A stretch of DNA of 32,000 bases from Promethearchaeota archaeon (GTDB lineage: Archaea > Asgardarchaeota > Hermodarchaeia > Hermodarchaeales > Hermodarchaeaceae), in NCBI GenBank assembly GCA_048938295.1, contig JBHLMI010000001.1, forward strand, positions 29,449-61,448, read 5' to 3'. Made by a program: the position numbers and the translations under genes. This document shows positions 3,482-28,631 of this stretch, piece by piece (within the stretch, counting starts at the first letter, position 1; every line of letters begins with the position of its first letter). The notes below the pieces were generated by a model, which was given only the letters and a program-made list of their open reading frames with translations, did not search any database and was not told the origin of the DNA.

Positions 3482-3503
3482 CAGCCATTTATTCTAGATG
3501 TTA

Positions 3504-4817: not shown

Positions 4818-4867
4818 GTTCTTTCATTCCCTCTAGTTGGGTAAGTGTGACAAGTAAACCCACAACA

Positions 4868-5036
4868 CTGAATCGAGCTCCACTGATTCAGGTGAACTGG
4901 GCTAGCTAGGTGTTTCTTTCACGTTGCCTCATCTGAAGACATCAGTTCTCACTGAGTCTTCGTGCAGGTGAGTTACCGTCGTTCCGTCTCGAATCTAATC
5001 ATGCAAATTAAATGATTGAGACACGACGTGGAACAC
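4868..5036. ncRNA. Putative structured RNA/leader element with several nested hairpins; strand uncertain
   Basis: Stems 4868-4874/4885-4891; 4928-4934/4966-4972 stacked on 4935-4946/4951-4961; 4977-5002/5012-5028; closing helix 4917-4924/5026-5033. No known RNA family recognised. Confidence 0.4.
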
Positions 5037-5072
5037 GTATCTCTTGTCTGGGCTTGTCAGCTCAACACGGCT

Positions 5073-5080
5073 TTTTAAAC
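5073..5080 (-). promoter_or_regulatory. Putative TATA box (TTTAAAAA on the minus strand) just downstream of the PHP gene
   Basis: Minus strand reads GGCAAGGTTTAAAAAGCC. It would give the beta-CASP gene a leader of about 230 nt containing the hairpins. Confidence 0.4.
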
Positions 5081-5091
5081 CTTGCCATCCT

Positions 5092-6006: not shown

Positions 6007-6012
6007 AATCTA

Positions 6013-6906: not shown

Positions 6907-7050
6907 TGAAGTAAACCTCGCTGCTATAATGAATCCCCGTGTTCCTTCTATAAAGGTCGGGGTTATTCATCTCTCCTTTGGCAAACCAAACAGGTAAAAG
7001 GGACTTTGAACCGGTAAGACCATCATGAACCTTTCAGGAGACACCATCAG

Positions 7051-7815
7051 ATGTCCAAAGTCGAATTGAAAAAAGAGAAGCAAATCGCACTAATCACTAT
7101 CAATAATCCCCCTGCGAACGCCCTTGACCAAGAAATCTTCACAACCCTGAAAGAAATCCTCACCGAATTGGATCAAGACGATACGAAAGTCATCATCATC
7201 ACGGGTGCTGGAGACAAATTCTTCATTGGCGGCGCAAACATCAAACAATTCAAGGATCTGGACGCGAAAGGTGCCGAAACAGTCTCTCGGATGGGTCAAG
7301 AGTTTACCCTCTTCTTAGAAAACCACAGCAAAGTCCTTATCATGGCAGTCAACGGGTTTTGCCTAGGTGGCGGAATGGAGCTCTCCCAAGCCTGTGATTT
7401 CGTAATTGCCTCAGAAACCGCGCGTTTCGGACAAACCGAAATCAAACTCGGCATCATTCCAGGATGGGGTGGAACTCAACGTCTTCAACATTGGATGGAT
7501 CCCCAACGCGCCAGAGAACTCATTCTCACTGGCGATATCGTTCCTGCCGCTGAAATGGGAAACTTCGTCTACAAAGTTGTTCCACCCTCTCAGCTTATTC
7601 CGACCTCGATGCGCCTAGCAGAACGGATTGCCCAACGTGGTCTGATGGCAATCAAACTTGCAAAGAAAGCCATGAAACGCGCTTTGTATATGTCAATCGA
7701 AGAGGGGTTGAAACTCGAAGCCCGCTACTTCGGCGAGGCCTTTGAAACCGAAGATGCCAAAGAAGGAATCAAAGCCTTCTTCGAAAAACGTGACCCCAAA
7801 GTGGTGGATAAATAG
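7051..7815 (+). CDS. Enoyl-CoA hydratase/isomerase (crotonase family)
   Basis: INNPPANAL, ITGAGDKFFIGGANI, AVNGFCLGGGMEL and FGQTEIKLGIIPGWGGTQRL; AGGAG SD upstream. Confidence 0.95.
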   Translation: MSKVELKKEKQIALITINNPPANALDQEIFTTLKEILTELDQDDTKVIIITGAGDKFFIGGANIKQFKDLDAKGAETVSRMGQEFTLFLENHSKVLIMAVNGFCLGGGMELSQACDFVIASETARFGQTEIKLGIIPGWGGTQRLQHWMDPQRARELILTGDIVPAAEMGNFVYKVVPPSQLIPTSMRLAERIAQRGLMAIKLAKKAMKRALYMSIEEGLKLEARYFGEAFETEDAKEGIKAFFEKRDPKVVDK

Positions 7816-7975
7816 GCTCTTCCATATGCAATTCACACTCAACTAGCCTTATTTGATACCTCGCAGATTCCACAGTATTCGAAAACTCCACCCATAGTAG
7901 ACAAAAGCGTTAAAGCACATTTCACGGCTAGTTGATACCAACCTTCCACACAACTCCATAGAGGAGCGATTTGGG

Positions 7976-10900
7976 ATGCGTAAAAGTAATCTAGCCCTCG
8001 GGCTCTTTCTCGTTTTCTTTCTAGTCCAGTTTATAGTTCCAACCTTTGCTCTACCTAAACAAACCACTTCACCGGAAAGTGGATTGTATACCCAATCCGC
8101 TCCTAGTATACAACCTGCTTCTCCGTCTGGCGATCTCATTATATTGCCAATAGAGGATAATTCACCACCAATACCCGATAATCCCTTTGGAACAGGACGG
8201 GAAACACTTGTAGAGTGGTGGAACACTTCATACGATTATCGACGGAAAATCACAATCGTCGAGCCTAATCTTGCTTCCCGAGCCATGGAACCTGTTCATG
8301 TCTACCTCACCTTTTCACCCAACACGGCTCGGGAAAACATCATCGCAGTCGCTTATTGGGATCTAACAACCTGGCATGAGGTTCCATCCCAAATCTGGAA
8401 TGTCTCTAAAACGGGTAACTATTATGATTCTTGTACAGTTTGTTTCCTTGTCAATATCACTCAGAACCACCAAGAAGTATTCTACCTCTATTATGACGAT
8501 GACCCAATCACACCCCCCTCCTATCCTGACCACATTGATGCCATCCCCACTGATGGTCCTGCAACAGATGATACCATCATGCCCTGGGTCTATTCTGATG
8601 TCACCTCAACGAATTACACTGGTGTTGACACAATCTTCATCCGATCATCAGCCAGCCAATACGAACACTCGGCAATTCTCCTTGTCGACACCCTCCGTGG
8701 GGGGTCTGATTGGGGTGGACCCTGCTGTGGCTTAATCACCGCTCGATATGGTGATGCTGACGCGTTTGATACATCTAACGGCACATCCGCTGATCAATAC
8801 ATGCTATTAGGTGAATTCGCCCTTGATCCATATTTGGTCAATCCAGGAATGGAATCAAATAACCGTGCCAACGTTGCCCCCGATAATCCAGCTGAAGCCT
8901 GGGTCGAAGGGGCGGGTGTATGGATCCTTGATGATGGACCACTCTTCACCCGAATCAAGATTGTCACCAGTGATGGAGGCTACGAAACCAGCTCTTCTAT
9001 TTATCCCTCCGATCCATATCAAGACTCGTACTCGAGGAGCTGGGGAAGCCATGGATTCTTCAACTATACGATTACCTACACCTTCTATTGGCATGGGGAC
9101 AATCTGTTTGTAAAAATACTTCTCGATATTGAAGCTAATCCCCAAGAATCAGGCCAGCAATGTGCCGTTAAAAACTATGGGGACTGGCCGCATATCATGA
9201 CCTTCACCTGCGGGATCGGAACCCCTGGCACTATTGATGCCCTGCAAAACCGCAAATCATGGTATGGTTCCAAATACGGGCTTTACAATGAGACAGTAGA
9301 TGGACGTCGCCGAGACTTTCCCGTTGAGCCCTGGATGACCTGGTATGATAATGCGAGCGGAACTGATCCCTCCGTTGGGCTCATAGCGAAAGTGAATCCT
9401 GTTGGTTGGGAAGTTCTCTCTCTTGCTGTCTCAGGGATGGGAGACAATACTATGTTGCAGCAGATTCTCCGTGAAGGGCATCAAGGGGACTTCTTCGTGA
9501 TGCCAGATGGAGACCATTTCGTCTATGATTATACCTTGTATACCTCAGCCTTTGGCACCAACTTCACCGAAACTCGTTCTCTTTCAATGCAGGTCAATCA
9601 ACCCATTTCGCTAGCACTCGGTGAAGAGGAGTTCTATGCACATAATGTGCTGACATGCACGACTAAGGATGTTGCTGGGACTAGTATCTCGAATGTGGCA
9701 ATCTACGTTTATAATAGTACAAGTCACCTTGTTCGCTCTGGTATAACCGATGTTGCCACAATCGACTTTCTCAAATTACCCTCAGATACCTATACAGTAA
9801 TTTCCAACTATTCTCTCCTATCAACGTATGGTGGAAGCATTACCTTTACCGTAAACACCACAGGTATACTCTTAGATCATACCATCCAACGTGGCTGGTC
9901 CCTTACCATTGAATGCCAGCTAAGTTATGTGACTTTAGAGGTTAGGGACTGGTTTGATGATAGTCTGCTCCCAACATATGCAGAAGTCTTCCTCGATAAC
10001 GCCACATCAACGGATCCCGTTTTTGCATTGAACGCCACCCCTTCCGCTTCAACCTACCTTCCCCCCGATCAATATGATATCAATGTTCGCTACATCAATC
10101 AATTCCGAAATCATAACCAAACAGCCCCGATTATTGTGAGTAGTACTGAAGACACCTATGTAGCAATTGGGATAGTCGCCCAAGAACATCGAACAGAAAT
10201 AGAGCTTAAGGCACCGACAACTGTCCCCTTCGTTGAAGTTCCTTATAATGTAAGCCGAACATTCATTGTCTTTTACAAGGATTCGGATTCAACACCAGCC
10301 GGCCAAGGAATCGATGTAAATGTGACTTCTATTCTTGGTAGTGCGACCTGGACATTATTTAATTCAACAGCAGATATGGTAGATTACGGTAAACTTATCT
10401 CTGTACCCAGTGAGGTTGGTAACTATTCGATGATCTTTGACGCATCGAAATATCTGGTCAACGAGACTTACCAGCTTCGCTTTTTCCTAGATGCCAATGC
10501 ACCTGTTGATTACTGGCAAGCTTTTCTTTCTGTTAGTATTCTCATCCGTGGCCGAGAAGTGCAAATTATTCCTGAGTTTACCTCTCATAGCGTGTTCTGG
10601 AACGGCACTTTCACATTCGCGGTGTATCTTAACGATACAGCAGAAAACCAACCAATTCTTGGTGCAGCACCCCAATATTTTGGGATAGGCTTCTCTGGCA
10701 CTTTACTTCCCAATGGGACGGACGGATGGTATTCAATAACTATCCAAGTCGAGAATCAATCCGTGGGCACCTATACCATCACTATACGCGCTCAAATCGC
10801 CGCCTATGAAGATGCAACATCCCAAATCCTGCTTCTGATCTCCCCTCAACCCACCGAAGCTAATCTTGTCGACGCATACACTCAAAGCATATGGGGCATG

Positions 10901-12163
10901 CGCCAAGCGCCCCTTGACGAGTTATGGGTGCCCATTAATGACCTGCTTGTTTTAACATTCAACTATACTGGGATGAATGGTCAACCGATTCATAATGCAA
11001 CCGGGCAAATCAGCTACATTGTAGGCTACCAAAATATCGTATACATCGGCAATGGCCTCTATCAGGTCGTCATCAATTCAAGCACAGTGCCCATCGGTTC
11101 ATACGCGGCCGCAGCGGGCTTTGGCGGACAAAACTTTGATGTAGCGATTCTGAGTTTCACAATCGAAGTTCGTAATATTCCCACTGCAGTCTATCTTCTT
11201 CATCCCATCCTCAATACAACATTCTATCAACTCAATATCGGTGATCTCTTTCGAGTCCGGATTAACTTCACTGACCTTGCCCACCAGATTCCAATTTCAG
11301 GGGCATCTGTTTACCTTCAAATCTCAGGCATTAACCCTCAGCCCATCCAAATGCTAGAAATCGAACCTGGCGTTTATGAGGCTGTAGGACTTTCCGTCTT
11401 CTTTGAGGGCGTTTGGGAACTCAATATCAATGCTATCATGGATGACCACGAAACAGGAGCCTACAACCTTCAATTAGTCGTACGAACCCCAGAATTTACT
11501 CGAAACGTCATTACCTACGGACTCATTGCCGCCATCATCGGCATCCTCCTCCTCGTCGCTTGGATGGCTTACACTCGAATCTTTGCGATTCCATGGCTGG
11601 TCCGCAAGATGCGGAAAATGTCCACTACCCTTGGCAAAGGAAAGACACCCAAACTGTCCGGTAGCGATCAACGCCGTATCGCCACGCGTCCCGATCAAAT
11701 GACCAATATCATGGAAGATGTCTATGATAGCGCAAAAATCACCTTCGTCGCCACCGCCATCCCCATCGCCCTAGCTGTGGATGAACGCGAAGCCGAAGAG
11801 ATCGATATCTGGCATGAACTCGACCAGCTCGAGGGTCTTGGTCGGGATCAGAAATTGGAGCTCTTCGAAGAAATGAAGCGCATCCCCGCCAAGGACCGCA
11901 TCTGGTTCCTCGAAGACCTCAAACGCCAGATGGCTGATGGCACCCGCTTCCAACGCACGCCAAGAGCCCCTCCTGAAGGGCTCCTGGACACGACAGCAGA
12001 AGAGCAAATCATCCAAGCTCGACTCGATGCCATTCCTGCGCTCAGTGAAAGGGAGAAGAAAACTCTCTTCAAACAGATAAGCAGCCTTGCGCCTGAAGAT
12101 CGCGAAGAGGTCTTCGAAACCCTAAAAGAGCAGTATAAGACGTCTGATGAGGACGAAGAATAG
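7976..12163 (+). CDS. Giant single-pass surface protein 1: signal peptide, DUF2341-like domain, beta-sandwich head, two carboxypeptidase-regulatory-like domains, about 4 Ig-like repeats, TM helix, cytoplasmic helical-repeat tail
   Basis: N-terminal hydrophobic signal; WWNTSYDYRRKITI...FYLYY (DUF2341-like); repeats with YxD...IxGA...GxY; TM GLIAAIIGILLLVAWMAY followed by PWLVRKMRKM; many N-x-S/T sequons; GAGGAG SD upstream. Confidence 0.85.
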   Translation: MRKSNLALGLFLVFFLVQFIVPTFALPKQTTSPESGLYTQSAPSIQPASPSGDLIILPIEDNSPPIPDNPFGTGRETLVEWWNTSYDYRRKITIVEPNLASRAMEPVHVYLTFSPNTARENIIAVAYWDLTTWHEVPSQIWNVSKTGNYYDSCTVCFLVNITQNHQEVFYLYYDDDPITPPSYPDHIDAIPTDGPATDDTIMPWVYSDVTSTNYTGVDTIFIRSSASQYEHSAILLVDTLRGGSDWGGPCCGLITARYGDADAFDTSNGTSADQYMLLGEFALDPYLVNPGMESNNRANVAPDNPAEAWVEGAGVWILDDGPLFTRIKIVTSDGGYETSSSIYPSDPYQDSYSRSWGSHGFFNYTITYTFYWHGDNLFVKILLDIEANPQESGQQCAVKNYGDWPHIMTFTCGIGTPGTIDALQNRKSWYGSKYGLYNETVDGRRRDFPVEPWMTWYDNASGTDPSVGLIAKVNPVGWEVLSLAVSGMGDNTMLQQILREGHQGDFFVMPDGDHFVYDYTLYTSAFGTNFTETRSLSMQVNQPISLALGEEEFYAHNVLTCTTKDVAGTSISNVAIYVYNSTSHLVRSGITDVATIDFLKLPSDTYTVISNYSLLSTYGGSITFTVNTTGILLDHTIQRGWSLTIECQLSYVTLEVRDWFDDSLLPTYAEVFLDNATSTDPVFALNATPSASTYLPPDQYDINVRYINQFRNHNQTAPIIVSSTEDTYVAIGIVAQEHRTEIELKAPTTVPFVEVPYNVSRTFIVFYKDSDSTPAGQGIDVNVTSILGSATWTLFNSTADMVDYGKLISVPSEVGNYSMIFDASKYLVNETYQLRFFLDANAPVDYWQAFLSVSILIRGREVQIIPEFTSHSVFWNGTFTFAVYLNDTAENQPILGAAPQYFGIGFSGTLLPNGTDGWYSITIQVENQSVGTYTITIRAQIAAYEDATSQILLLISPQPTEANLVDAYTQSIWGMRQAPLDELWVPINDLLVLTFNYTGMNGQPIHNATGQISYIVGYQNIVYIGNGLYQVVINSSTVPIGSYAAAAGFGGQNFDVAILSFTIEVRNIPTAVYLLHPILNTTFYQLNIGDLFRVRINFTDLAHQIPISGASVYLQISGINPQPIQMLEIEPGVYEAVGLSVFFEGVWELNINAIMDDHETGAYNLQLVVRTPEFTRNVITYGLIAAIIGILLLVAWMAYTRIFAIPWLVRKMRKMSTTLGKGKTPKLSGSDQRRIATRPDQMTNIMEDVYDSAKITFVATAIPIALAVDEREAEEIDIWHELDQLEGLGRDQKLELFEEMKRIPAKDRIWFLEDLKRQMADGTRFQRTPRAPPEGLLDTTAEEQIIQARLDAIPALSEREKKTLFKQISSLAPEDREEVFETLKEQYKTSDEDEE

Positions 12164-12192
12164 AGAATATCATTCTCGGATTAAGGGTTTAC

Positions 12193-12213
12193 CTACTTTC
12201 AGCATGAAAGTGG
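12193..12213 (+). terminator. Hairpin after surface protein 1
   Basis: CTACTTTCA-GCA-TGAAAGTGG, a 9-bp stem with one G-U pair, 30 nt after the stop. Confidence 0.3.
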
Positions 12214-12362
12214 ATTTAGGATAATAAGTGCGAGATATAAGGTCGGCTTTTTTCAATTAGAAATTTCAGGAAATCTATTTAAATTCCTATCGTGTGTCTA
12301 GCTAAGTGGCTACAGCAGCCTAGCTGACATTGCGCGCCATCAAGTTAATGGAGAGTAATCTA

Positions 12363-15300
12363 ATGAAAATCCGTCCAGTTGCCATTATGGCATTATGTCT
12401 CTTTCTTATTCCACTCCTTCTCCAACCTTTATCCACTCAAGGAATTGACCCCACCCTTGCCCCTAATGCAAGCAAATCATCATCTCCAATGCAACCGGAT
12501 GGAGGACCACCTCCACCAAGTCCTGATTATTCAGGCATTGGAATGGCGCGGAATGTGGCTGAATATGCTAACCGAACGGATGCAGGGCAGAGTCTTCACC
12601 TCATCTATGACAGCTCAGCTAGCATCCGATACAACGACACAGCCCAAGCAGTTCTTCCTCCCGGATGGGAAGGTTACATGCTTGTCACCTATGTGTATGA
12701 CGTAGCAGAGAATCGCTCTTGGGTACTCAATCCCTATTTTGATAATACAGCCCAATATTGGAACGGCATCACGTTTGACGGGGGATCTTGGGTTAACGTC
12801 ATTAGCACAAGCTATGAAGCTAATGGCCATGGTACTGGCAATCCGGCTGTTCGATGCGATATCAATGGTTATGACAGGGGTAGCGGTTGGTACTCCTATG
12901 ATCCTGTCGATTATGCCCGCTGGAATCAAACTATCGCTGTTCCTCCACGCGGACAAGTCCTCTCTGCCTCTATTCAATTTGATTACGCTGTTTGGACCGA
13001 CTCTGGATGGGGGCTAGGACTACCTTTTCAAATTTATATTCGAATAGATGGCACCCAAGTCTATTCAATGGGCTTTGACAATGTCTTGGTTTCTGAACAG
13101 ACCTGGACCAACACCGGGCAACAACCCTTCAACCCCAATGTCATTAATTTAGCAGATGGACTCAATGTGCAAGTGGGACTCCGCTATACCGGAGACAGCG
13201 GGACACGATTTAGCCCCGACCCCCGACCCCGAGCACGTTTTGATAATGTCTTCGTTTATATCAACGCTCTTGTGCTTCCCTCTGATATCAACCTCAAAGT
13301 AAACGGGCTCGATGTCATCGATGATACTTTCGGTTCAGGACAAGTAACCGAAGATCAACTGGCAAGCCCATGGACGACGTCTCCTGTGATAGCTGAAGTT
13401 AATTGGACTTCAACCCCATACCCACCCAATCCTGACATGGATATGGATATCACACTCACAGTTGACACAAACCTGTTCTCACAGAAATTTAGCACAACTC
13501 TCTACGCACAGGATCCCTTTACTTCTGGCACCCAGTTTATCGCTTCAAGTGGACAAAACACGGTCTGGAAGATGTATTATCAACTGGCCTTGCCCACCCT
13601 CTATTGGAATGATCACTTCAACCTCACAATCCCAGATGATTGGAATGTCACCTTCGTCTCTGAACCCCAGCTTCCTACAACAAATACTCTCCATCTCTGC
13701 TATGGTGGAGGCTTAGGAGACGGCTATATTAGCATCCCAACGACTGACATCACAAATAGCCCTGATGGGTACTGGTACATTAAAGCTGAATCCCATAACT
13801 ACGTCGATTCAGCAGAGCTGCAAATTTATGATGGCGGCTGGACTCCCACCTCTGCGATACGGGCTGGCAACACAACCCGCGTACAGGCGAGAATTTTAGA
13901 TGGTTCAAACAATCCACCATCAGGCGTTTCATCCACCCAAGCAAATGTCACCATCTTCGAACCAGGTGGAGGGATATATTATACCGAATTAGTGAATCCC
14001 ACTGCTGCCGGATGGGTGTACACACAAAGCTTCTACAATGATGGCTGGAACACCACTGGAGGCACCTACGCCATCTTTGTAAATTGGGATAATTCCACAG
14101 AAGCTGGTGAAATCAATCTCCAATACACTGTTCGCCACGGAACTAGCCTTACTCCCCGTGAACCCATCATTGAAACCTTCTATGAAGACCAGCCCTTATT
14201 CCCCAAAGTCCGTTACTTAGATGTCGACAGCGATGATTGGTTAGAACCTGCAGCGGTCGTCGAAGGTAACTGGACAACCGGCACGATTAGCTTCCACTAT
14301 GTATCAGGAACTGGTTACTGGGAAGCTGAGATTAACGCTCTTGAAGCCGGCGATGTGGGACAATTTTGGATTCGCGTGAATGCGAGTAAAAGCCATTATG
14401 ATGACGCTTTCTGCTTCATCCTCATTGACGTTGTAGCTGAAACCATAGTTAATTCACCACAAGCCGCAGGCGTCTACGTTCCCTGGCGGGACAATGCAAC
14501 TATCCAAATTGAATATCTCCGGAAAGCTGACAGTATGGGAGTAACCGGCTGTGTACCCTACCTGGAAGTCACTGCAAACTGGACCGCTGGATATTATACC
14601 ATCACTGAGATTGGAAGTGGCTGGTATGAGATTGAGCTGAACAGTACTGGTCCAGGGTCCCTAGGCTCATTCGTACTCAATATCACCATATACAAAGAAC
14701 GGTATCAATTTCAGCAATTCTACATTACTGTCACCGTTCGCGAAATCCTCACCGATCTGGACTTCACCAACCCGACTAATGTCTATTGGAGCCAAAACAC
14801 CAGCATTCCCCTCTTCTACAATGACACTGATCACGGAGGCGTCGGCATTGCCGGGGCACTGGTGACCTGTGACTGGGGAGATGTCTATTATGTTACTGAC
14901 ATGTACGTTCTTACCCTTAGAACCGATAACATCGATATTGGACTTCATACGGTCACTATCACTGTAAGTAAAACGTTCTATAATACCCGCCAAATCATTG
15001 TCCAATTCTACGTTAACCCACTCCCTCTAGACCTGACTGTCACGGTGGCCGATCCCATTAATATTATCTATGGTGAAAACTTCTGGGTTGAAATCTATGT
15101 GGAAACCATCTTCGGTGACCCAGTCACAGATGCTAACGTCACCTTCTCCTGGATCGGAGGTGCTTTCAGCAATACCAGCGGACCTGGAGGCTATTATGGC
15201 ACCTGGTTCTCCTCCTCTTCAGGCACGATTGGTGTTCACTATGTGACCGCCTTTGTCAACCGCACAAATTGTGCTCAAAGCTTTGCATCAGTAGTCGTCA

Positions 15301-17207
15301 ATGTCAAGCAAATTCCCAGTTTCCTCGATACGGTACCACCGGGTCGCTATTCACTGAACTTTACCATTGGATCCGCCTTTAGCCTCCCAGTAAATTATAG
15401 TACCCTACTTGGAAGCCCAGTCCTCGGTGCGGTCGTCACCTACTCCGTTGGAACCCTAAATGGTATTTACTCCGAAATAGGTGGAGGAATCTATAATATC
15501 ACCATTGACACCACCGGATTAATCGCTGGATCCTACACTATCTACGTCACGGCCTCCTCTCCCAACGTTAACTCTCAATCCCGAGCAATTAGCTTGGTCC
15601 TCACCCTACTCCCAGCTGCCCTCGAACCCGAAACTACCACCTATGTTGTCTATTGGGGATTGAACTTCACAGTTAATATTTTCCTCCGAAATCTGTTCAA
15701 CGACACTCCAATCACAGGAGCTACTGTTGAATACTTCTGGGGCCCATACTCGGGAACCATGATCGCGAATGGGACACCCGGATGGTACACAATTACACTA
15801 CCCAGCACAGCTTTTTCATCCGGTTCAGTCTACATCGCAACCTTTGCTGCAAACCCACCCAGTTTTGAATTCGTAGTCAATTCTGCCACCATCTACATCG
15901 AATCACGACCCACTCAACTAGATCTTGTTAACGCCTGGATGTACTTCCCCGAAACTGGTGCAATCACCTGGCTAAACATCTCTGAGCCCTGGACCGTCCC
16001 ACGTAGTGATGTTCTGTACCTTTACTTCAACTACACCGATTATGCCAAGAACACGGTATTAAACGCAATTGGATCATATTCCTGGTTACTGGGAAGCGGA
16101 ACCCTAACTTACGATGACGAAACTGGCTTTTACTATGCGGTAGTCAACATGACTCAGGTTTCACCCGCCAACTACTACCTGGATGTCACATTATCCCGGC
16201 AAAACTATCAAACCGCACAAATCCTACAACTCCCAGTCATCGTCACTTTGGTTCGAACAGAAATCCGAGGAATTCCACAAAACATCCAAGCTGTCACTGG
16301 CACGGCATACACATTTACCATAACCCTTTGGGATCTAGATCATAACACCTCCATTCCTGGTTCCACGGTTACAGTAACAATTCCTCTGGTTACAGATGAA
16401 CATGGCTGGGTTCTCACAGATAACGGGGATGGAACCTATACCCTGCCCTCGGTCACCTTTCCTGGTGAACTCACATATCTCATGGAATTTCGAGCAGAAA
16501 CCGGCTTGATCTATTCTATTGCGATACATCAGGTCAATGTCAATGTAGCCCTTCACCCCATCGTCCAAGCCAGCCTCCGATTGGGTCTAATCGCTGCCAT
16601 AATTGGCATCATTATCCTCATCACCTGGCTTGCCTATACACGGGTGTTTGCCATTCCATGGCTAGTTCGCAAGATGCGGAAAATGTCCACCGACCTAGGC
16701 AAAGGTAAATCAACCCACCTGTCCAACCGTGACATCAACCGCATCGCCACCCGACCCGAATCCATGGAAACCATCTTCGAACCCGCCTACGGCGCTCTCG
16801 GCGTCCCGATAGCCGCCACTGTGTTACCTGCAGCCATCACCATCGAAGAACGGGAAGCCGAAGATGAAATCATTTGGCAGGAACTTGAAAAGCTCGAAGG
16901 CCTTGGCCACGACCAGAAACTCGAGCTCTTCGAAGAAATGAAACGTATCCCTGCCAAAGACCGGGTCTGGTTCCTCGAAGACCTCAAACAACAAATGGCT
17001 GACGGCACCCGCTTCGGACGACTCCCTGCTGAACCGACGCTCGTGCCCGAAGGTGTTGATCCTCGCGTCCACGCACGTCTCCTATCCCTCGAAGCCCTCG
17101 GACCCGCCGAGAAAGACGCTGTCGTCGAACAGCTTCGCGGCCTCTCCAAGGAAGAACAAGAAGAGGTCATCCGCGCCCTCGAAGAAACCGAACGTGGAAA
17201 AGAGTAA
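12363..17207 (+). CDS. Giant single-pass surface protein 2: signal peptide, jelly-roll/CBM-like head in a conserved core, about 8 Ig-like repeats, TM helix, cytoplasmic helical-repeat tail
   Basis: ATG 12363 follows GGAGAG and begins a signal-like MKIRPVAIMALCLFLIPLLL (alternative starts 12330 and 12348). NPYF...W...FDNV jelly-roll hallmarks; roughly 100-aa repeats including DNGDGTY; TM plus PWLVRKMRKM; tail paralogous to gene 1. Confidence 0.85.
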   Translation: MKIRPVAIMALCLFLIPLLLQPLSTQGIDPTLAPNASKSSSPMQPDGGPPPPSPDYSGIGMARNVAEYANRTDAGQSLHLIYDSSASIRYNDTAQAVLPPGWEGYMLVTYVYDVAENRSWVLNPYFDNTAQYWNGITFDGGSWVNVISTSYEANGHGTGNPAVRCDINGYDRGSGWYSYDPVDYARWNQTIAVPPRGQVLSASIQFDYAVWTDSGWGLGLPFQIYIRIDGTQVYSMGFDNVLVSEQTWTNTGQQPFNPNVINLADGLNVQVGLRYTGDSGTRFSPDPRPRARFDNVFVYINALVLPSDINLKVNGLDVIDDTFGSGQVTEDQLASPWTTSPVIAEVNWTSTPYPPNPDMDMDITLTVDTNLFSQKFSTTLYAQDPFTSGTQFIASSGQNTVWKMYYQLALPTLYWNDHFNLTIPDDWNVTFVSEPQLPTTNTLHLCYGGGLGDGYISIPTTDITNSPDGYWYIKAESHNYVDSAELQIYDGGWTPTSAIRAGNTTRVQARILDGSNNPPSGVSSTQANVTIFEPGGGIYYTELVNPTAAGWVYTQSFYNDGWNTTGGTYAIFVNWDNSTEAGEINLQYTVRHGTSLTPREPIIETFYEDQPLFPKVRYLDVDSDDWLEPAAVVEGNWTTGTISFHYVSGTGYWEAEINALEAGDVGQFWIRVNASKSHYDDAFCFILIDVVAETIVNSPQAAGVYVPWRDNATIQIEYLRKADSMGVTGCVPYLEVTANWTAGYYTITEIGSGWYEIELNSTGPGSLGSFVLNITIYKERYQFQQFYITVTVREILTDLDFTNPTNVYWSQNTSIPLFYNDTDHGGVGIAGALVTCDWGDVYYVTDMYVLTLRTDNIDIGLHTVTITVSKTFYNTRQIIVQFYVNPLPLDLTVTVADPINIIYGENFWVEIYVETIFGDPVTDANVTFSWIGGAFSNTSGPGGYYGTWFSSSSGTIGVHYVTAFVNRTNCAQSFASVVVNVKQIPSFLDTVPPGRYSLNFTIGSAFSLPVNYSTLLGSPVLGAVVTYSVGTLNGIYSEIGGGIYNITIDTTGLIAGSYTIYVTASSPNVNSQSRAISLVLTLLPAALEPETTTYVVYWGLNFTVNIFLRNLFNDTPITGATVEYFWGPYSGTMIANGTPGWYTITLPSTAFSSGSVYIATFAANPPSFEFVVNSATIYIESRPTQLDLVNAWMYFPETGAITWLNISEPWTVPRSDVLYLYFNYTDYAKNTVLNAIGSYSWLLGSGTLTYDDETGFYYAVVNMTQVSPANYYLDVTLSRQNYQTAQILQLPVIVTLVRTEIRGIPQNIQAVTGTAYTFTITLWDLDHNTSIPGSTVTVTIPLVTDEHGWVLTDNGDGTYTLPSVTFPGELTYLMEFRAETGLIYSIAIHQVNVNVALHPIVQASLRLGLIAAIIGIIILITWLAYTRVFAIPWLVRKMRKMSTDLGKGKSTHLSNRDINRIATRPESMETIFEPAYGALGVPIAATVLPAAITIEEREAEDEIIWQELEKLEGLGHDQKLELFEEMKRIPAKDRVWFLEDLKQQMADGTRFGRLPAEPTLVPEGVDPRVHARLLSLEALGPAEKDAVVEQLRGLSKEEQEEVIRALEETERGKE

Positions 17208-17215
17208 ACCTCAGC

Positions 17216-17262
17216 TCTAGGGGACCTCTGGTCCCCCCTCGAACCTTTTTAGGCCCCCTAGA
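17216..17262. repeat. GC-rich palindromic element after surface protein 2
   Basis: GGGGACC-TCT-GGTCCCC hairpin (17220-17236), overlapping an alternative 8-bp inverted repeat TCTAGGGG (17216-17223)/CCCCTAGA (17255-17262); T5 at 17246-17250. Confidence 0.5.
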
Positions 17263-17271
17263 AACTGCGCT

Positions 17272-17281
17272 AAACTTTATA
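17272..17281 (+). promoter_or_regulatory. Putative BRE/TATA element for surface protein 3
   Basis: AAACTTTATA, about 150 nt upstream of GTG 17430. Confidence 0.35.
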
Positions 17282-17429
17282 GAACAACACTAGTAGCATC
17301 CCATTCATCCATCTATTCAGCTCTTTTGTCTAGATGGCTCATTTACAAAAAACTCATAAAATCTAGTTGACAATATAATATGATTCAGTAGTAGTTCGGA
17401 CGATTACAGCTGGGTCAAATTGCGGTGAG

Positions 17430-20400
17430 GTGCAGGTTGTGAAGCTAGGCAAACTCGAATTAGCAGTCGTCATATCGTTCTTTTTAGTTATGATACTCTC
17501 CTCTTCAGGGGTTAACCTCCCTCTTGTTGTGAGTGCAGCTCCAGATCCCTATCAGGGATCAGGTGGAGATATTGACATTTATGAGTTTGCTCGCAACGAT
17601 AGCCTTACTTTCAAGAATGGTGTTAATGACACTGCGTTCAGCTACCTGGCTAGCCGGTATCCTTCAAACCCCTCCCCATATTTCGGGTACCGACTCCATA
17701 GCGAAGTAAGCAACCTATTCCAAATCGAAGATCCAGTTCCAAATGGTGAGTTTTCGCAAACGGAGCCAGGAACAGCCTGGGTTGAAACATTAAACACCCG
17801 TGGCCTCGTCGAAGCATGGGGTAATACGACCGGGGGCAACCCCGATGATTGTCTGGAAATTAATCTTGACTTTAAACATGATTTCGATGCTTCTGCAGAA
17901 GCCAATTACGATAATGTGTTTTCCTATACGTCCGATAAACAACCGTTTAACTCCACCCTCGAATTCGATATCAAATATTCCGGGGATATCACAAAGAAAA
18001 CTGAGTTAGAAATCAAGGTTGCCCTCATTTATCATACATCAGAAATTGGGAGCTGGTCCGCAACCACAGACGCCTACCACCCCACAAGCTGGTCTCCTCA
18101 AAGCTTCAGTACCGCACCCGTGAATGGCACAGTAACACTGAGAATCTTCATCATCTACACTGGTGGAAAGAAGAACGACTTGGACGGAAACGTCTATTTC
18201 GATAACTTCCAGTATCGAATTTTGACGCAACGTAGCCCCACTGAAGTGTCCCTCACCCTAAATAACACCGCTTTTCTCGATACAGGCATTGCTCAAGGCC
18301 ACGTTGACGTTTACGCCGATACTCCGAACAAGGAACAAGCTCTCATCGGTAACTGTTGGTCAACTACCCAACTCTTTCAATTCTATTCCTCACACGAGTT
18401 AGCCTTCGACTATTCATATTCGATGTATATCAAAACAGAAAACACCGATGCTGCTTCCACCACCTTCACTGCCCCCGTGGACACAGATCCCACATGGGAA
18501 ATTACCTACACCACTCCCTCACCACTACCACCAACCGGCTATAGTGGATACACCTTTGGGCTATTTCTTCAAACGGGCTGGTTTCTCACCTCAGTTGAAA
18601 ACGACACAGGAGACACAATCTCTGAGTATGAATTTAACATTACCAGCCGATTCATTTGGCTAGATGAGGGGATCGCTGGTCCAAACGAGGATTTCTCGAT
18701 TTTTGCCTCAAGCACTAACTATGTACAGGCCATTTATCCTCAAATCAGCGCAACAGGAACTGGAGGCTGGACAAACCTCTCATCAGGTGAATACTACGTC
18801 AAAGGCGATTATCTGCGCATCATGGCCAAAATCCAAACCTTAGACCCAGTCACCAACATCGCCAATATCACTGTATTCTTCCCCAATGATACCAAGTGGC
18901 AGAGTGATGCCACCCCGGACTTCTTTCTCGCAAATGATACGATAGTTAGCGCGCCTTGGCTGGTTTCCTCGATTGATCCCATTGATGCTGGAAGCGAATG
19001 GCACGTTACTGTTTCCTATAACTCCCCAAATCAATGCGGAATGCGAGAACAAGCGATTTCCATCGTCATTGAAACCACCGCTACCAAAGTCACTCCACCT
19101 GATGGTACCCGCGTTATTTCTGGCGACACCGTGACAGTTGAAGTGTTCTGGGAAAATCTAGACACAAGTGCACCAATCACTGATGCAACGGCCCGTATCC
19201 GCTATCTAGACCGTAACATGCAAGTCCAAACCGTCGGCATGACCGCCGATGGCCTAGGAGGTTATTCTTTGATCTATTTTTCCACCAGTCTAATGCGACC
19301 CAGTACCACAGCCACATTCGGCGTTGAACTCTTCCGATATGGGTACGTTAACGCCAGCTACAGTGAGGGCACCCAAATAGACTTCACAATCAATCTTGTC
19401 AATAATATCAACTATGTGATGATCAAACCTACCCAACAAACCGGTCCAGATGAATTCACCGCAGAAACCTCCCGATCCCAGGGATATACTACCCTTGTCA
19501 AATTCTATGATCCCTTCCAATCCGCCTATGTGCTGAACGAGACGTCTCTATGGCCAAAGGTGCTGGTACAATTTGACTACTACGAAGATACGGGTTCAGG
19601 ATTCGGCTCATCTCTGTATTCGGGCAGTTTCAGCGAAAATGCCACAACACGCACTTTCTACAAAGATGAAACCTTTGGCCCAACCGTTCAACGTGTGAAG
19701 TACGTAGTTACGATGCGAATTGAAGACGCCTCCTGGGAATTTGAACAACAAAATTTCACGATAATTATTAACGTCGTCTCGTGGGCGACAAATCTGGATG
19801 CAGTTCGGACAAGTATCGCCTATCCACCATCTGGTACAGGTGATGGCTGGACTGCGTATAATAACGTCACAGACACTTATGAAGTGCATTTGTATTGGGA
19901 TGAGAGCTTCACCATCACCGTCTATTACGAGAACCTCAGCAGCATTCCTACTCCAGAAGGAATTGAATCGGCAACCGTCAGAATTCTAATCGACGAAACC
20001 CTGTATCCGCTAACGGAAATGGGTAACGGGAACTATTCGTATACCCTCAATACGAATTCCTATTCTGTTGGCATCTTGGATTTGTATGTGAATGCCACCT
20101 TTCTTGATCATGCATCACAGACGATTCGCATTCGCCTAATCATTAATGCACGTACCACTCAACTGGTGAGTGATTATCTTCCCACCACCAAGGATATTCC
20201 TTATGATAGCGATTTCTCGGTGCTATTCACATTCACTGATGAAGTCTCATCCTCAGTTCCAATCACAAACGCCGTGGTGTCAGTAACTGGATACGTTTCA
20301 GGTAAATATTCCATCACCAATCATGGTGATGGCACCTATACGATCACATTTGAGGGGGATATCACAGAAGGAGCCTATTACGTTACGATTTTGTTTGAAC

Positions 20401-23400
20401 GGACCAATTATGCAAGCAAGTCCAAATACTATGAGATTACCGTACGTCCAATTCATACCGGCAGCTGGGCCTCGGCGGAAAATCCGTCCGTTCCATGGGG
20501 CACCACAGTTGTCATTACCCTGCAGTATAATGATACAGATAACGGGTCTCTGGGCATTCCTGGAGCAACAATCGCGTTCTCCTGGATGGATAACATTGAA
20601 GGCGTTGACTATTGGCTAACAGATAACAGCGATGGCACATATACGATTACCTTAGCCACATCCAAGGTGGCTTATGGAACTCAAGGCTATACTGTTTCGT
20701 TCACGCTATCGAAAACCCATTATGACTCTGACCAAATCGACGTATCATTTCAGGTGCGCGACATTCTCACCACACTGTTCATCGTCGACACGCTTGTCAT
20801 GGGAACAACCACAACCTCTGTGCCTTGGGGTGAAACGCTTACCCTTATTCTGCATTTCAATGATACTGAAAATGGCCTACACATCCCAGCTGCGAGTATT
20901 TCCTGTAACTGGGATCCAGGCTATTGGGACGTCATTTACAATGGCACCGACCACGCATATTATCTGACAATCTATACTGATAACACCATTGAGGGTGGCC
21001 ACGTAATCCAAATCTATGCATCAAAAATCCATTACGTCAATGGGTTTAATATCCAAAGCTTTGTCGTTCGAGAAATTCAAACCAGCCTTTCTGCTATCCC
21101 CTCCTACGTTGCTTCTTGGCCCTGGGGAGATAATCTTACGATCCAACTCACCTACCAAGATTTAGATCATGGCGGTACTTTCATTCCCTACGCTACTACC
21201 ACAACTGATTGGAATGCTGGATTTTACACCTTCTATGATTATGGTAACGGAACCTACCTGTTGGTGCTGAATACTACCTGCCGAGTCATTGGTCAACATT
21301 CTATTCAAATCACACTCAGTGAATCACTTCTAAGCCCACATTATGCAGAAAGAACACTGACCCTTTTAGTAAAGCTTGATCCCATTCCGCTTATCGTTAC
21401 AGTTCAAAGTCCACCCGGTGGTCAAAATATAACCAGCTATAACGATCTTCAAATCCTAACCGTAAATGTCACCGACCACCTCGGTCGGCCCATAAACGAT
21501 GCCACCACCGTCTACGAATGGGCAGGCCGCAATAATGTAACCATGACGTTCCTTGGAAACGGAATATACACATTTTCCTTTTTGGCAAATGCAACGCCAG
21601 GAAGTTGGATTGTTACCATCATAGCATCGAATTTACCTAATTATCGCGATGGTTCATCCTCTATTGTTTTAACAATTAAAGCAACTGAGACGAAGCTTGT
21701 TGCCATCACCTTAACCCCTGTCAATGCGGTGGCCAATACGAGTTTCATTTTTACTGTGAATTTTACCACGCTCAATGGTCAACCCATTGAAGGTGCTGTT
21801 GTCACATTCTCGTTAGGTCCACACAATGGCTTCCTATTAGCTATTAGTCCAGGAATCTACGAGGCTACAATCCCCACAACCAACCTAGGCGCTGGCCAAT
21901 ACACGCTTTATGTCAGCGCAAGTAAAGCTACAATGGAAACCAAATGGAATGAATTCCCTGTCTTTCTTACCAAGATTCCTTGTAGCCTTGAACCCGAAGT
22001 ATCTTTTCTGAACGTAGACTGGGGTCATAACTTCACAATCAATGTGTACTTCAATGACACCCACAATAACCTCCCTATTGATGCCGCAAATATCATCTAC
22101 AACTGGGAAACTCTAAACGGCTCACTCGTCGCAAACGGAACTGCAGGTTGGTACACCATCACGCTCCCCAGCACTGTTTATCCTGCGGACTCCTTCTATT
22201 CGGTAACCTTCACTGTAGACCACGCAGGCTATCAGTACAGCCTTGCTGTTGTGACAGTAAACATTCGCCGGCAAAGCACTGACTTAGTGCTCACCCAAGC
22301 AGAAGCCCATTACCAAACCATCACTCGACAACTCAATACCACCCCCTGGGACATACCCTGGAGCGACACCTTAGTCTTATCCTTCAATTATACCGACGGA
22401 GATGGAATCAGTATAGCCAATGCCATCGGAGCCTATACCTGGGAATTAGGCTCAGGTACCCTCCAATTCATCGAAGGTCTCTATGTATGTCAAATCAATT
22501 TTACTGGGGTAAGTGGTATCTACGGGCTGCAAGTTATTATTAGCAAACAAAACTACGATAAAGGCATATCTGAAATTTACACATTAAATATAACCAGATC
22601 CCTGACTGAAATAGCCTTTATTGAAGGGCCTCCCCCCACAGTAACAGCCGGAACCCCTTTCCAAATCACAATCCGTGTTACCGATTACTATCATAATCGT
22701 TCTATCCCAGGTGCCAATGTTTCTGTTGAGATACTTGAATATGGTCAACATTTCACTATGTACGACAACCAAGATGGTACATACTCAATCATGTTAACCC
22801 TCCCTCAACCTAATGTCTATCATCTCATGTTTTATGTTGAAGTGGATGTTCGGTTCGAAACTGGACGGTTGGGTCCAATTCAGGTTGTGGCTCTTACTAG
22901 TCCAATCATACAGAATACCATCAACGGAGCTGCAATAATCGCTGTTATTGGAATTATTGTCATCGCTGTCTGGTTTGCGTACACGCGGGTTTTCTCGGTA
23001 CCTTGGCTCGTTCGAAAGATGCGGAAAATGTCACAGGCAATTGGTAAAGGTCGAACTCCCAGTTTGTCCAAGGTTGATGTTGCGAAAATTACTAGTCGAC
23101 CTGATCTATTACACGACATGACAACGCCTGCCTACCGAAGTATTGGTCTCGCAGCCAGCACAATCGTAATTCCTGTTGAAATCGATTGGGCTGAAAAAGA
23201 AGCCGAAGATGAGGCTATTTGGTCAGAACTGAAAAACCTGCCGTTCATCGAATATGCGCAGAAATTAGAGCTCTTTCAGCAAATGAAGCAGCTTCCCCCT
23301 GGTGAACGTGTATGGTTTATCGAAGATCTCCGGAAACAAATGACCGATGGAACCCGATTTGATCGGAAGTCAAAGGAGCCCGAAATTAGCGAAGATTTAG

Positions 23401-23729
23401 AAAAACTATTGCGGGCCCGGTTAGCCCTATTCCCTGCCCTAAGTGACCTTGAAAAAACCCGAATTGCGGCGCAGCTGCGAAAAATGCCCAAAGAGGACTG
23501 GGACGAAATCTTTGACACTCTCGCCATTTCTCAGGTCTCTAGGGAAGACCTTGAGCCAGAGATTCTCCGTCCTGATGAATTCCCGTCACTCACAGAGGAA
23601 GAACGTCGAAAGATACTGGAACAAATTGAGGGTTTGACTGACGAAGAACGCGAAAAAGTACTCAAAACCTTCCGTGAAAAACACGATAAACCCAAATCGA
23701 AAGGGAAGAAAGAGGAAACGAAGGATTAG
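17430..23729 (+). CDS. Giant single-pass surface protein 3: signal peptide, jelly-roll/CBM-like head in a conserved core, about 12 Ig-like repeats, TM helix, cytoplasmic tail with 3 helical repeats
   Basis: NGEF...W...YFDNF hallmarks; repeats with DNSDGTY, NHGDGTY, DNQDGTY and YGNGTY turns; TM AAIIAVIGIIVIAVWFAY plus PWLVRKMRKM; collinear with protein 2. Confidence 0.85.
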   Translation: MQVVKLGKLELAVVISFFLVMILSSSGVNLPLVVSAAPDPYQGSGGDIDIYEFARNDSLTFKNGVNDTAFSYLASRYPSNPSPYFGYRLHSEVSNLFQIEDPVPNGEFSQTEPGTAWVETLNTRGLVEAWGNTTGGNPDDCLEINLDFKHDFDASAEANYDNVFSYTSDKQPFNSTLEFDIKYSGDITKKTELEIKVALIYHTSEIGSWSATTDAYHPTSWSPQSFSTAPVNGTVTLRIFIIYTGGKKNDLDGNVYFDNFQYRILTQRSPTEVSLTLNNTAFLDTGIAQGHVDVYADTPNKEQALIGNCWSTTQLFQFYSSHELAFDYSYSMYIKTENTDAASTTFTAPVDTDPTWEITYTTPSPLPPTGYSGYTFGLFLQTGWFLTSVENDTGDTISEYEFNITSRFIWLDEGIAGPNEDFSIFASSTNYVQAIYPQISATGTGGWTNLSSGEYYVKGDYLRIMAKIQTLDPVTNIANITVFFPNDTKWQSDATPDFFLANDTIVSAPWLVSSIDPIDAGSEWHVTVSYNSPNQCGMREQAISIVIETTATKVTPPDGTRVISGDTVTVEVFWENLDTSAPITDATARIRYLDRNMQVQTVGMTADGLGGYSLIYFSTSLMRPSTTATFGVELFRYGYVNASYSEGTQIDFTINLVNNINYVMIKPTQQTGPDEFTAETSRSQGYTTLVKFYDPFQSAYVLNETSLWPKVLVQFDYYEDTGSGFGSSLYSGSFSENATTRTFYKDETFGPTVQRVKYVVTMRIEDASWEFEQQNFTIIINVVSWATNLDAVRTSIAYPPSGTGDGWTAYNNVTDTYEVHLYWDESFTITVYYENLSSIPTPEGIESATVRILIDETLYPLTEMGNGNYSYTLNTNSYSVGILDLYVNATFLDHASQTIRIRLIINARTTQLVSDYLPTTKDIPYDSDFSVLFTFTDEVSSSVPITNAVVSVTGYVSGKYSITNHGDGTYTITFEGDITEGAYYVTILFERTNYASKSKYYEITVRPIHTGSWASAENPSVPWGTTVVITLQYNDTDNGSLGIPGATIAFSWMDNIEGVDYWLTDNSDGTYTITLATSKVAYGTQGYTVSFTLSKTHYDSDQIDVSFQVRDILTTLFIVDTLVMGTTTTSVPWGETLTLILHFNDTENGLHIPAASISCNWDPGYWDVIYNGTDHAYYLTIYTDNTIEGGHVIQIYASKIHYVNGFNIQSFVVREIQTSLSAIPSYVASWPWGDNLTIQLTYQDLDHGGTFIPYATTTTDWNAGFYTFYDYGNGTYLLVLNTTCRVIGQHSIQITLSESLLSPHYAERTLTLLVKLDPIPLIVTVQSPPGGQNITSYNDLQILTVNVTDHLGRPINDATTVYEWAGRNNVTMTFLGNGIYTFSFLANATPGSWIVTIIASNLPNYRDGSSSIVLTIKATETKLVAITLTPVNAVANTSFIFTVNFTTLNGQPIEGAVVTFSLGPHNGFLLAISPGIYEATIPTTNLGAGQYTLYVSASKATMETKWNEFPVFLTKIPCSLEPEVSFLNVDWGHNFTINVYFNDTHNNLPIDAANIIYNWETLNGSLVANGTAGWYTITLPSTVYPADSFYSVTFTVDHAGYQYSLAVVTVNIRRQSTDLVLTQAEAHYQTITRQLNTTPWDIPWSDTLVLSFNYTDGDGISIANAIGAYTWELGSGTLQFIEGLYVCQINFTGVSGIYGLQVIISKQNYDKGISEIYTLNITRSLTEIAFIEGPPPTVTAGTPFQITIRVTDYYHNRSIPGANVSVEILEYGQHFTMYDNQDGTYSIMLTLPQPNVYHLMFYVEVDVRFETGRLGPIQVVALTSPIIQNTINGAAIIAVIGIIVIAVWFAYTRVFSVPWLVRKMRKMSQAIGKGRTPSLSKVDVAKITSRPDLLHDMTTPAYRSIGLAASTIVIPVEIDWAEKEAEDEAIWSELKNLPFIEYAQKLELFQQMKQLPPGERVWFIEDLRKQMTDGTRFDRKSKEPEISEDLEKLLRARLALFPALSDLEKTRIAAQLRKMPKEDWDEIFDTLAISQVSREDLEPEILRPDEFPSLTEEERRKILEQIEGLTDEEREKVLKTFREKHDKPKSKGKKEETKD

Positions 23730-24655: not shown

Positions 24656-25198
24656 ATGGATCAGTTCAAAACATTACAGGAATTCATTATCGCGTGGATG
24701 GATGAACTCTGGTGGAGCATGCGCGACCGCGTCGGTGCGCTCTCCATGATAGATATTCTACAAAGCTCATGGAAAGCTGCGGGACAGAAAGTTGGGGCAA
24801 TTGGAAAAACAGAGGGGCTCCCTATCCTCAACACCGTTGAAGAAGCCCATTCGATATTCGGACGAACCGTCAACGTGAATAATAATACAGTTCGTGTTAC
24901 CACCTGTCCTATTTGGGATAGAATTCTGGCGGGCAAGCTGGAATATGGGCTCCGCTGTGAGGAATTCGTCTGTGCCCCTTATCTCTCTGGTATCAAAGAT
25001 GCAATGAGTGCGAAAGAAGCCACTGTTGAAACCAATCTCCGCTTAGCTCATGTTGCTCGGGTCCGATTAGAATACAAGCTAAACAAACTGAAATCAGCAA
25101 GTGCTTCAGATCCACAGGTTAAAGCTCAGATAGCTGAACTCAAAATGCAGCTCGATCAATTGCCCACTGAACCGGCTTGTATTTTCCACGTGAAATAA
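24656..25198 (+). CDS. Hypothetical Cys-rich protein, probable V4R/H-NOX-like fold with a coiled-coil insert
   Basis: VRVTTCP...RCEEFVC...ACIFHVK four-Cys pattern; 16 nt after the nitroreductase, with a GAGGGA SD-like motif. Confidence 0.55.
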   Translation: MDQFKTLQEFIIAWMDELWWSMRDRVGALSMIDILQSSWKAAGQKVGAIGKTEGLPILNTVEEAHSIFGRTVNVNNNTVRVTTCPIWDRILAGKLEYGLRCEEFVCAPYLSGIKDAMSAKEATVETNLRLAHVARVRLEYKLNKLKSASASDPQVKAQIAELKMQLDQLPTEPACIFHVK

Positions 25199-25490
25199 CA
25201 GAACTCCAAACCAGTCTATTTCGTTCCTTCAAGGATCGGTTTTGCCATCGCAAGTAACTCCTCTTCACTCAGATCTGCTTTCAAGGGGCTAAACTCTTTT
25301 TTACACTAATCACGCTCATCTGCCTCCAACTGTTAGCTACCTACTCAGCAGTTCATCCTCGTCCTTTATTTTTCTTGAAACGCGAGAAATCGAAGAAACT
25401 ATGGCAACTCAAATTGCGAATGGTTATTAAGTGAAACTTGCCAAAGGCGACTCACTATCCTAATGCGTTTTCTCAAACTCGGTGTCACGG

Positions 25491-26873: not shown

Positions 26874-26885
26874 GAGTGGATACTA

Positions 26886-27143: not shown

Positions 27144-27189
27144 TACGAACTGGTGTTTCTCTGAACGGAGTATCAATTGGGGGGTTATC

Positions 27190-28581: not shown

Positions 28582-28602
28582 CAAAACTCACCGACTTGAT
28601 CA

Positions 28603-28609: not shown

Positions 28610-28631
28610 GGTAAGGTTGGACGAGGGCACG

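Follow-up and report, generated by a model that had tools for sequence, protein, structure and literature searches.

The window analysed here is a 32,000-nt stretch from a Promethearchaeota archaeon of the family Hermodarchaeaceae (GenBank assembly GCA_048938295.1, contig JBHLMI010000001.1, positions 29,449 to 61,448), and its + strand carries three consecutive giant open reading frames (ORFs), A, B and C, encoding proteins of 1395, 1614 and 2099 aa. In the interpretation that we favour, at roughly even confidence, these are paralogous giant type-I membrane glycoproteins of a non-crystalline Asgard coat, and a tail shared by all three would tie their heads to a common intracellular component. 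Considered on its own, membership of A, B and C in such a coat is probable. Cultured Asgard archaea have no ordered S-layer, and complex surface proteins protrude from their single membrane (PMC9834061; bioRxiv 10.1101/2025.11.06.686947). The genes and the membrane-proximal and cytoplasmic features of their products are as follows.

7976..12163, + strand: gene A, predicted type-I surface protein P0001, 1395 aa (ORF and translation; 12 orthologues of ~1400 aa).
11507..11641, + strand: A, transmembrane (TM) helix (aa 1178-1205) and amphipathic basic juxtamembrane (JM) helix PWLVRKMRKMSTTLGKG (aa 1206-1222), from hydropathy and AlphaFold2 (AF2; helices 2-32 and 36-49, predicted local distance difference test score, pLDDT, 80-98).
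11777..12154, + strand: A, predicted cytoplasmic three-helix bundles 1 (aa 1268-1321) and 2 (aa 1339-1393), from AF2 (pLDDT ~90) and the cross-match of repeat hidden Markov models (HMMs).
12363..17207, + strand: gene B, P0002, 1614 aa from the ATG at 12363 (ORF; the public record begins at residue 12).
16572..17204, + strand: B, TM helix, JM helix and tail with two three-helix bundles, P0002 aa 1415-1625 (hydropathy, alignment, repeat HMM).
17430..23729, + strand: gene C, P0003, 2099 aa, GTG start (ORF and translation).
22917..23726, + strand: C, TM helix, JM helix and tail with three three-helix bundles (aa 1917-1979, 1989-2037 and 2049-2087) and a Lys-rich end (alignment, repeat HMM).

The ORFs confirmed the three consecutive same-strand genes of 1395, about 1614 and 2099 aa reported in a preliminary description of the sequence, and hydropathy together with repeat HMMs bore out the signal peptide, head, immunoglobulin (Ig)-like stalk, single TM helix and long tail that it had assigned to each product. 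The open frame of gene B has an alternative TTG start at 12330, which would give 1625 aa, and all P0002 residue numbers are counted from this TTG. Each of the three tails is 190-245 aa long and follows one TM helix. The motif AYTR(I/V)F(A/S)(I/V)PWLVRKMRKMS is almost invariant in A, B and C, as had been noticed at the outset, and the TM-plus-tail segments of the paralogues share 43-56% identity. Also in agreement with the preliminary description, the paralogous ectodomains align loosely: they are alignable only in the Ig-like stalk (28-32% identity), apart from heads B and C, which share 22% identity (E 1e-3), while head A aligns with neither. The picture of a variable outside on a constant inside thus holds between paralogues, but it does not extend to orthologues, whose ectodomains are not hypervariable (50-80% identity within the genus).

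Conservation within the module is concentrated in two short parts. Among the 12 A orthologues, mean pairwise identity is 0.92 in bundle 1 and 0.91 in the JM helix, compared with 0.76 in bundle 2, 0.73 in the head, 0.70 in the linkers, 0.66 in the TM helix and 0.49-0.76 across the four Ig repeats. The JM helix and bundle 1 are also conserved islands in a 34-sequence alignment of the tail family, where positions E99, L111, L125, M129, F140, Q147 and M148 of bundle 1 (E1270, L1282, L1296, M1300, F1311, Q1318 and M1319 of P0001) are invariant. By these two comparisons, the JM helix and first bundle are the part of the whole protein under the strongest purifying selection. Synonymous differences between the paralogue tails are saturated (proportion of synonymous differences, pS, 0.56-0.88), which rules out recent gene conversion as the cause of the shared motif and argues that purifying selection has maintained it. 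As synonymous divergence (dS) is saturated between the available species, nonsynonymous divergence (dN) and identity were used in place of dN/dS. The proposal that the tail is more conserved than the ectodomain was upheld for A- and B-type orthologues, with a tail dN of 0.09-0.14 against 0.09-0.47 in ectodomain regions and 91-92% identity in the JM helix and bundle 1, but not for C-type orthologues. At the nucleotide level, A, B and C encode KMRKMS by one and the same 17-nt sequence, AAGATGCGGAAAATGTC (window positions 11606-11622, 16671-16687 and 23016-23032), which, given the otherwise saturated synonymous sites of the tails, could reflect nucleotide-level constraint or chance.

An AF2 model of the tail, based on the 34-sequence alignment (pLDDT 83), comprises a TM helix broken at I-P-W, the JM helix, a less ordered linker and two three-helix bundles. 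The hydrophobic moment of the JM helix is 0.54-0.60 (0.54 in A). Repeat HMMs of bundle 1 and bundle 2 match each other (independent E-values, iE, 3e-6 to 1.5e-9), and the bundles are therefore regarded as an internal repeat with two copies in A and B and three in C. A, B and C all carry the signature of the tail family of Hermod- and Thorarchaeota, namely a C-terminal TM helix, a JM helix of the pattern P-x-x-V-R-x-h-x-K-M, a G-K-G-x-x-P linker and at least two three-helix repeats; they match the tail profile at E 1e-117 to 1e-119, all three being also part of its seed. A YxxPhi sorting signal within AYTR(I/V) was considered and set aside, as the motif is situated within the TM helix or at its end; to our knowledge, no Asgard AP-type reader has been established.

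Searches for a known domain in the tail returned little. Pfam and NCBIfam, run on the full proteins and on 34 tails, gave nothing above cut-off in this region, and the sub-threshold matches (BET, DUF3106, YqbF_HeH, MgtE_N and FliG) were all weak. The SAP/HeH/LEM profiles did not reach their cut-off either, YqbF_HeH scoring 13.6 bits against a required 27; of the HeH-type families it is the best represented among the 34 tails (5 of 34, best E 0.004). A profile search of PDB sequences with the tail yielded nothing below E 0.4, the tail model retrieved generic three-helix bundles only, with Z of 6.6 or less, from Foldseek searches of PDB and AFDB clusters and a wide VIA-align search, and an ESM Atlas feature search with the tail gave no usable match.

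The tail profile matched 43 of 1.84 billion cluster representatives, and in every full-length case, with lengths of up to 3986 aa, the match was C-terminal on a giant. The module is present in all 18 of the other genomes of the family, and the array is conserved within the genus with three or four genes. Within its own genome, the module occurs on five giant ORFs only and never on a soluble protein: the three described here and a second tandem pair on contig C64 (locus L082; 1-495, cut by the contig end, and 700-9456, 2919 aa), whose tails form a subtype with the sequence IPWEVRR and a long Pro-rich linker separating bundles 1 and 2. Weaker profile matches fill a second family, the Thorarchaeota, the tails of which align with those of Hermodarchaeota over 202 columns, the whole module (hhalign 99.5%, E 6e-23). 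The Thorarchaeota giants resemble A-C in their homologous TM helix, JM helix, bundle 1 and bundle 2, in their Ig-like stalks and in their tandem gene pairs, although tail identity is only ~20%, the JM helix reads VPKMVRWLNKMIK as opposed to IPWLVRKMRKMS here, and linker lengths and repeat numbers differ. The HMM search across genomes that had been proposed thus revealed a lineage-restricted module, confined in these profile comparisons to giants of Hermod- and Thorarchaeota, with no match to a described anchoring domain in Pfam, NCBIfam, PDB or fold searches, and the early guess of an Asgard-type archaeon was right, the organism being of Hermodarchaeota type. With tails of other Asgard lineages, similarity is restricted to 55 columns covering the JM segment (hhalign 76%, E 2e-5). 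The TM-JM segment of giants that share head A, in records labelled Hod-, Sigyn- and Promethearchaeota, also resembles that of A-C. A JM motif common to the whole phylum is suggested by these similarities, not established. A full-text search of the literature found no description of the tail module; archaeal anchored surface glycoproteins and adhesins are a known type, and the cytoplasmic domain family appears to be new.

The extracellular parts of the three proteins are made up of the following segments.

8057..10210, + strand: head A, aa 28-745, beginning with a DUF2341-like segment of ~105 aa (aa 81-183), the remainder having no family match.
10211..11488, + strand: stalk A, four Ig-like repeats of ~95 aa, aa 746-1171 (iterated self-repeat HMM, iE 4e-17 to 2e-27).
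12447..14150, + strand: head B, P0002 aa 40-607, collinear with head C at 22% identity, no Pfam match.
14151..16553, + strand: stalk B, eight Ig-like repeats, P0002 aa 608-1408 (repeat HMM; Invasin_D3 23.8 bits, below cut-off).
17538..19085, + strand: head C, aa 37-552 (alignment with head B).
19086..22892, + strand: stalk C, 11 Ig-like repeats, aa 553-1821 (repeat HMM; Invasin_D3 68 bits against a cut-off of 33, weak Big_1).

Hydropathy places an N-terminal hydrophobic, signal-like segment and one hydrophobic helix, ~190-250 residues from the C-terminus, in each of A, B and C. The 25 residues after this helix have a net charge of +5 to +7 and the 25 before it one of -1 to -3, and the acidic ectodomains, in which acidic residues outnumber basic ones ~2.4-fold, hold 29, 33 and 43 N-x-S/T sequons (about one per 40 residues), while the tails hold none. 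Because this charge bias and sequon placement fit a type-I orientation, the ectodomains are placed outside and the tails in the cytoplasm; on the same grounds, the ectodomains are probably glycosylated and the proteins probably reside at the cell surface.

Stalk repeats were counted with an HMM iterated from the repeats of the three proteins themselves. They are mutually homologous across A, B and C and stand directly before the membrane helix; a stretch of ~150 aa in stalk C (aa 659-811) received no repeat-HMM assignment. In Pfam, stalk C matches PF09134 in three stretches (68 bits against a cut-off of 33), stalk B remains sub-threshold at 23.8 bits and stalk A has no match. Pfam searches of heads A and B gave no match. 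The DUF2341-like segment of head A shares 44% identity over 106 aa with a segment of a protein whose record lists PF10102, and homologues of head A with 39-50% identity occur in the records labelled Hod-, Sigyn- and Promethearchaeota, where the distal tails differ. For head B, an ESM Atlas feature search returned Ig-like/CARDB leads only, all below 0.85. The rod of tandem ~95-aa Ig-like domains with a distal binding head is reminiscent of bacterial adhesins with invasin/intimin D3 or Big_1 domains. Invasin and intimin, however, are held by an N-terminal outer-membrane beta-barrel with a LysM region, for which A-C have no Pfam match, whereas A-C are anchored by a C-terminal TM helix with a cytoplasmic tail, have unrelated heads and belong to an archaeon with a single membrane.

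Taken together, these features could be accommodated in a simple model. Stalks of 4, 8 and 11 repeats would hold distinct heads at three heights, the JM helix would lie on the inner leaflet of the membrane, and a conserved partner in the cytoplasm or cell cortex would dock onto bundle 1, so that heads binding different things outside would all connect to one intracellular component, either through mechanical anchoring or through recruitment. The design recalls integrin beta (with talin and kindlin) and the classical cadherins (with catenins), in which a diverse ectodomain and one TM helix are likewise combined with a short, best-conserved cytoplasmic region; no sequence or fold relationship to these was detected in Pfam, PDB-sequence and fold searches, and the likeness is one of analogy only. 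No kinase, HAMP, cyclase or other known output domain was found in the tail by Pfam, NCBIfam and fold searches. As the tail has no catalytic domain, any signalling must act by recruiting another protein. Of the earlier proposal of a family of adhesion or sensing receptors, the type-I architecture with a shared module therefore stands, whereas the wording 'signalling receptor' goes beyond the evidence, and a receptor feeding one partner is best described as plausible but unproven.

Several observations weigh against a coat whose heads share one intracellular component. The JM helix and bundles are not packed by AF2 into a single confident unit (predicted TM-score, pTM, 0.36). Three-helix bundles are generic and could equally act as spacers or in self-association, and expression, glycosylation and surface location of the proteins are all deduced from sequence. 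No conserved partner gene was found beside the array here or in the examined flanks of two Thorarchaeota genomes, the neighbours being metabolic in the former and lipid-related and other in the latter, none with a match to an adaptor. Finally, the tail dN of C-type orthologues is 0.26-0.41, so that their tail is not better conserved than the ectodomain.

In a rival explanation, unlikely though far from negligible, the JM helix and helical tail would be purely a stop-transfer, retention or insertion/sorting device for very long ectodomains, with no dedicated partner and no flow of information. The strong positive-inside cluster right after the TM helix and the amphipathic character of the JM helix agree with it, and a possibly related JM motif on Asgard giants with quite different distal tails fits a generic membrane-proximal role, as would the failure to find a partner gene nearby in the flanks examined. 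Bundle 1, however, starts ~60 residues past the JM helix and yet is equally conserved and carries invariant residues, for which simple retention would be insufficient. Typical archaeal surface-protein anchors, moreover, need only a few basic residues after the helix.

Alternatively, the tails, alone or with the TM helices, might bind one another, producing homo- or hetero-oligomers of the A, B and C stalks or a sub-membrane lattice that would serve as the inside anchor of a loose coat. Oligomerisation is a frequent role of small helical bundles, all paralogues have the module and the Ig repeats next to the membrane in common, and the tandem array is conserved. This possibility is nevertheless rather improbable, as the array varies between three and four genes among genomes, stalks of such different length fit a fixed parallel hetero-oligomer poorly, and a coiled-coil heptad signature is not evident. 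Gram-positive three-helix modules (protein A, and GA/FIVAR of Ebh/Embp) are similar in size to the bundles of the tail model and align with it at VIA-align Z 6.0-6.6 (rmsd 2.4-2.9 over 54-61 residues), values in the range expected for any small helical bundle. These modules are extracellular, whereas the tail bundles would be cytoplasmic; no Pfam match above cut-off connects them, and one weak repeat-wise sequence match, to P0040, was found.

A more specific form of partner, in which the JM helix or tail would dock an Asgard 'MPxGL' longin/winged-helix adaptor and couple surface binding to GTPase-type regulation, has a low probability and is placed just behind self-association. In its favour stands locus L135, where two tandem surface-protein genes are directly followed by the gene of a 358-aa longin/winged-helix adaptor, P0087; one of the two, P0074, combines a short tail, in which a JM-like motif can be made out by eye, with a head that shares 39% identity with head A. 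The genome analysed here encodes a full-length homologue of this adaptor, P0088 (E 1e-33), on contig C38 beside a longin-fused small GTPase, and the hhalign match of the JM segment to tails of other Asgard lineages (76%) also counts in its favour. Set against this, the C38 cassette is unlinked to any tail-bearing gene of the genome, an adaptor adjoins a head-A-like giant in only one (L135) of six other loci, five having none, and JM homology beyond Hermod- and Thorarchaeota is only moderate. No longin/winged-helix adaptor gene was found next to, or fused with, the array genes, the window neighbours being enoyl-CoA hydratase, nitroreductase and ACD genes. Co-folding of P0001 aa 1203-1395 with P0088 aa 1-385 scored 0.00, a result that counts neither way as the run had no controls.

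On C38, positions 87842-91528 (- strand; loci L138 and L139) hold a cassette of three genes. Their products are P0088, a 'MPKGL...' longin/winged-helix adaptor homologue of 527 aa with a Lys/Glu-rich end, the longin-fused small GTPase (89614-90588), and a protein in which another adaptor-like N-domain precedes a TFIIB-like C-terminus (90506-91528). An ORF of 1794 aa with a TrmB-type wHTH and coiled coils lies 4 kb from the cassette (78432-83813). At locus L143, the sequencing-run contig of P0059 (positions 12474-13145 and 16252-19136), an Arf/Ras-type small GTPase gene comes after the gene of a giant whose head is A-like, with a 1940-aa MarR/apolipoprotein-like coiled-coil gene close by; these resemble components of the C38 cassette. 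An NPRL2-like longin/roadblock/winged-helix protein on contig C65 was rejected as a linked partner. Its strong orthologues share their families with the tail (f1, f30 and f31) but are never adjacent to tail genes (on other contigs or more than 100 kb away), and the co-occurrence was not used because it is confounded by relatedness. A Pfam search of the genome for NPR2/NPR3 detected neither.

A-C share with TM-anchored archaeal S-layer glycoproteins, such as those of haloarchaea, a Sec signal, an acidic, sequon-rich ectodomain and a single C-terminal TM helix followed by basic residues. The S-layer glycoproteins, however, end a few residues past the helix or are PGF-CTERM-processed, whereas A-C carry 190-245 conserved residues at this position, occur as several paralogues with different heads and stalk lengths, and are found in archaea from which no lattice is known. 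That A-C are canonical subunits of a crystalline S-layer, the tail being a lineage quirk, is very improbable: signal peptide, acidic ectodomain, C-terminal TM anchor and a sequon density similar to that quoted for S-layer proteins (PMC11284389) would fit, but no single subunit dominates among the five or more paralogues, whose heads are unrelated and whose stalks come in three lengths, Pfam and NCBIfam detect no PGF-CTERM or archaeosortase-type end, and cultured Asgards have no ordered layer of this kind (PMC9834061; PMC11284389; bioRxiv 10.1101/2025.11.06.686947).

The genes of the array are separated by two spacers.

12164..12362, + strand: A-B spacer, T6 run (12248), then TTTAAA (12278), read from the sequence.
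17208..17429, + strand: B-C spacer, hairpin GGGGACC-TCT-GGTCCCC with a T5 run (~17217-17250), then TTTATA (17276), read from the sequence.

Both are ~200 nt long and contain a T-run followed by a TATA-like hexamer, and because of these elements A, B and C are likely separate transcription units; the GC-rich hairpin is found in the B-C spacer only, where hairpin and T5 run would form a putative terminator and TTTATA a putative promoter. No RNA runs containing the stretch are listed, the listed runs being of sediment metagenome DNA only. The array is flanked by metabolic genes, namely enoyl-CoA hydratases, an acyl-CoA synthetase, a beta-CASP nuclease, a nitroreductase, two ACD-type CoA ligases, a thiolase, a DUF35 protein and an M20 peptidase. 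Downstream of the array, the nitroreductase gene is immediately followed by a 180-aa ORF (P0086, window 24656-25198) with no Pfam match. Similar ACD-type CoA ligase, thiolase and DUF35 (OB_ChsH2) genes follow both giant-gene loci of the genome (window 25482-30268; C64:9500-15300, locus L134), and either segmental duplication or conservation of the neighbourhood may account for this repeated set. Downstream of the tandem giants in two genera of Thorarchaeota lie the same LPG_synthase_TM, PHP, UbiA prenyltransferase and DUF362 genes (L131, G372:C1:199000-208000; L132, G389:C12:177000-186000), which could be a lipid- or glycan-related neighbourhood.

Protruding surface proteins of Asgard archaea are thought to mediate the cell-cell contacts that are central to models of eukaryote origin, and A-C supply concrete candidates for this class in Hermod- and Thorarchaeota. 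Perhaps surface and cytoplasm are coupled across the Asgard archaea by a system with the JM helix and bundle 1 as its receptor end: heads differing in kind and height would bind external partners or substrates, and the tail would recruit one conserved cytosolic adaptor (possibly a longin/winged-helix protein with a longin-GTPase) or the actin cortex. This broader proposal is decidedly unlikely, albeit somewhat less so than self-association of the tails; if it were true, the lineage closest to eukaryotes would possess a prokaryotic equivalent of the eukaryotic adhesion-receptor/adaptor systems. As the most constrained part of the proteins is predicted to be intracellular, the JM helix with the 55-residue bundle offers a short, defined bait for a surface-linked partner. 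If such a partner exists, it would provide the first molecular link between the Asgard cell surface and the cytoplasm; if none exists, the module would represent a novel way of anchoring giant surface proteins in the archaeal membrane.

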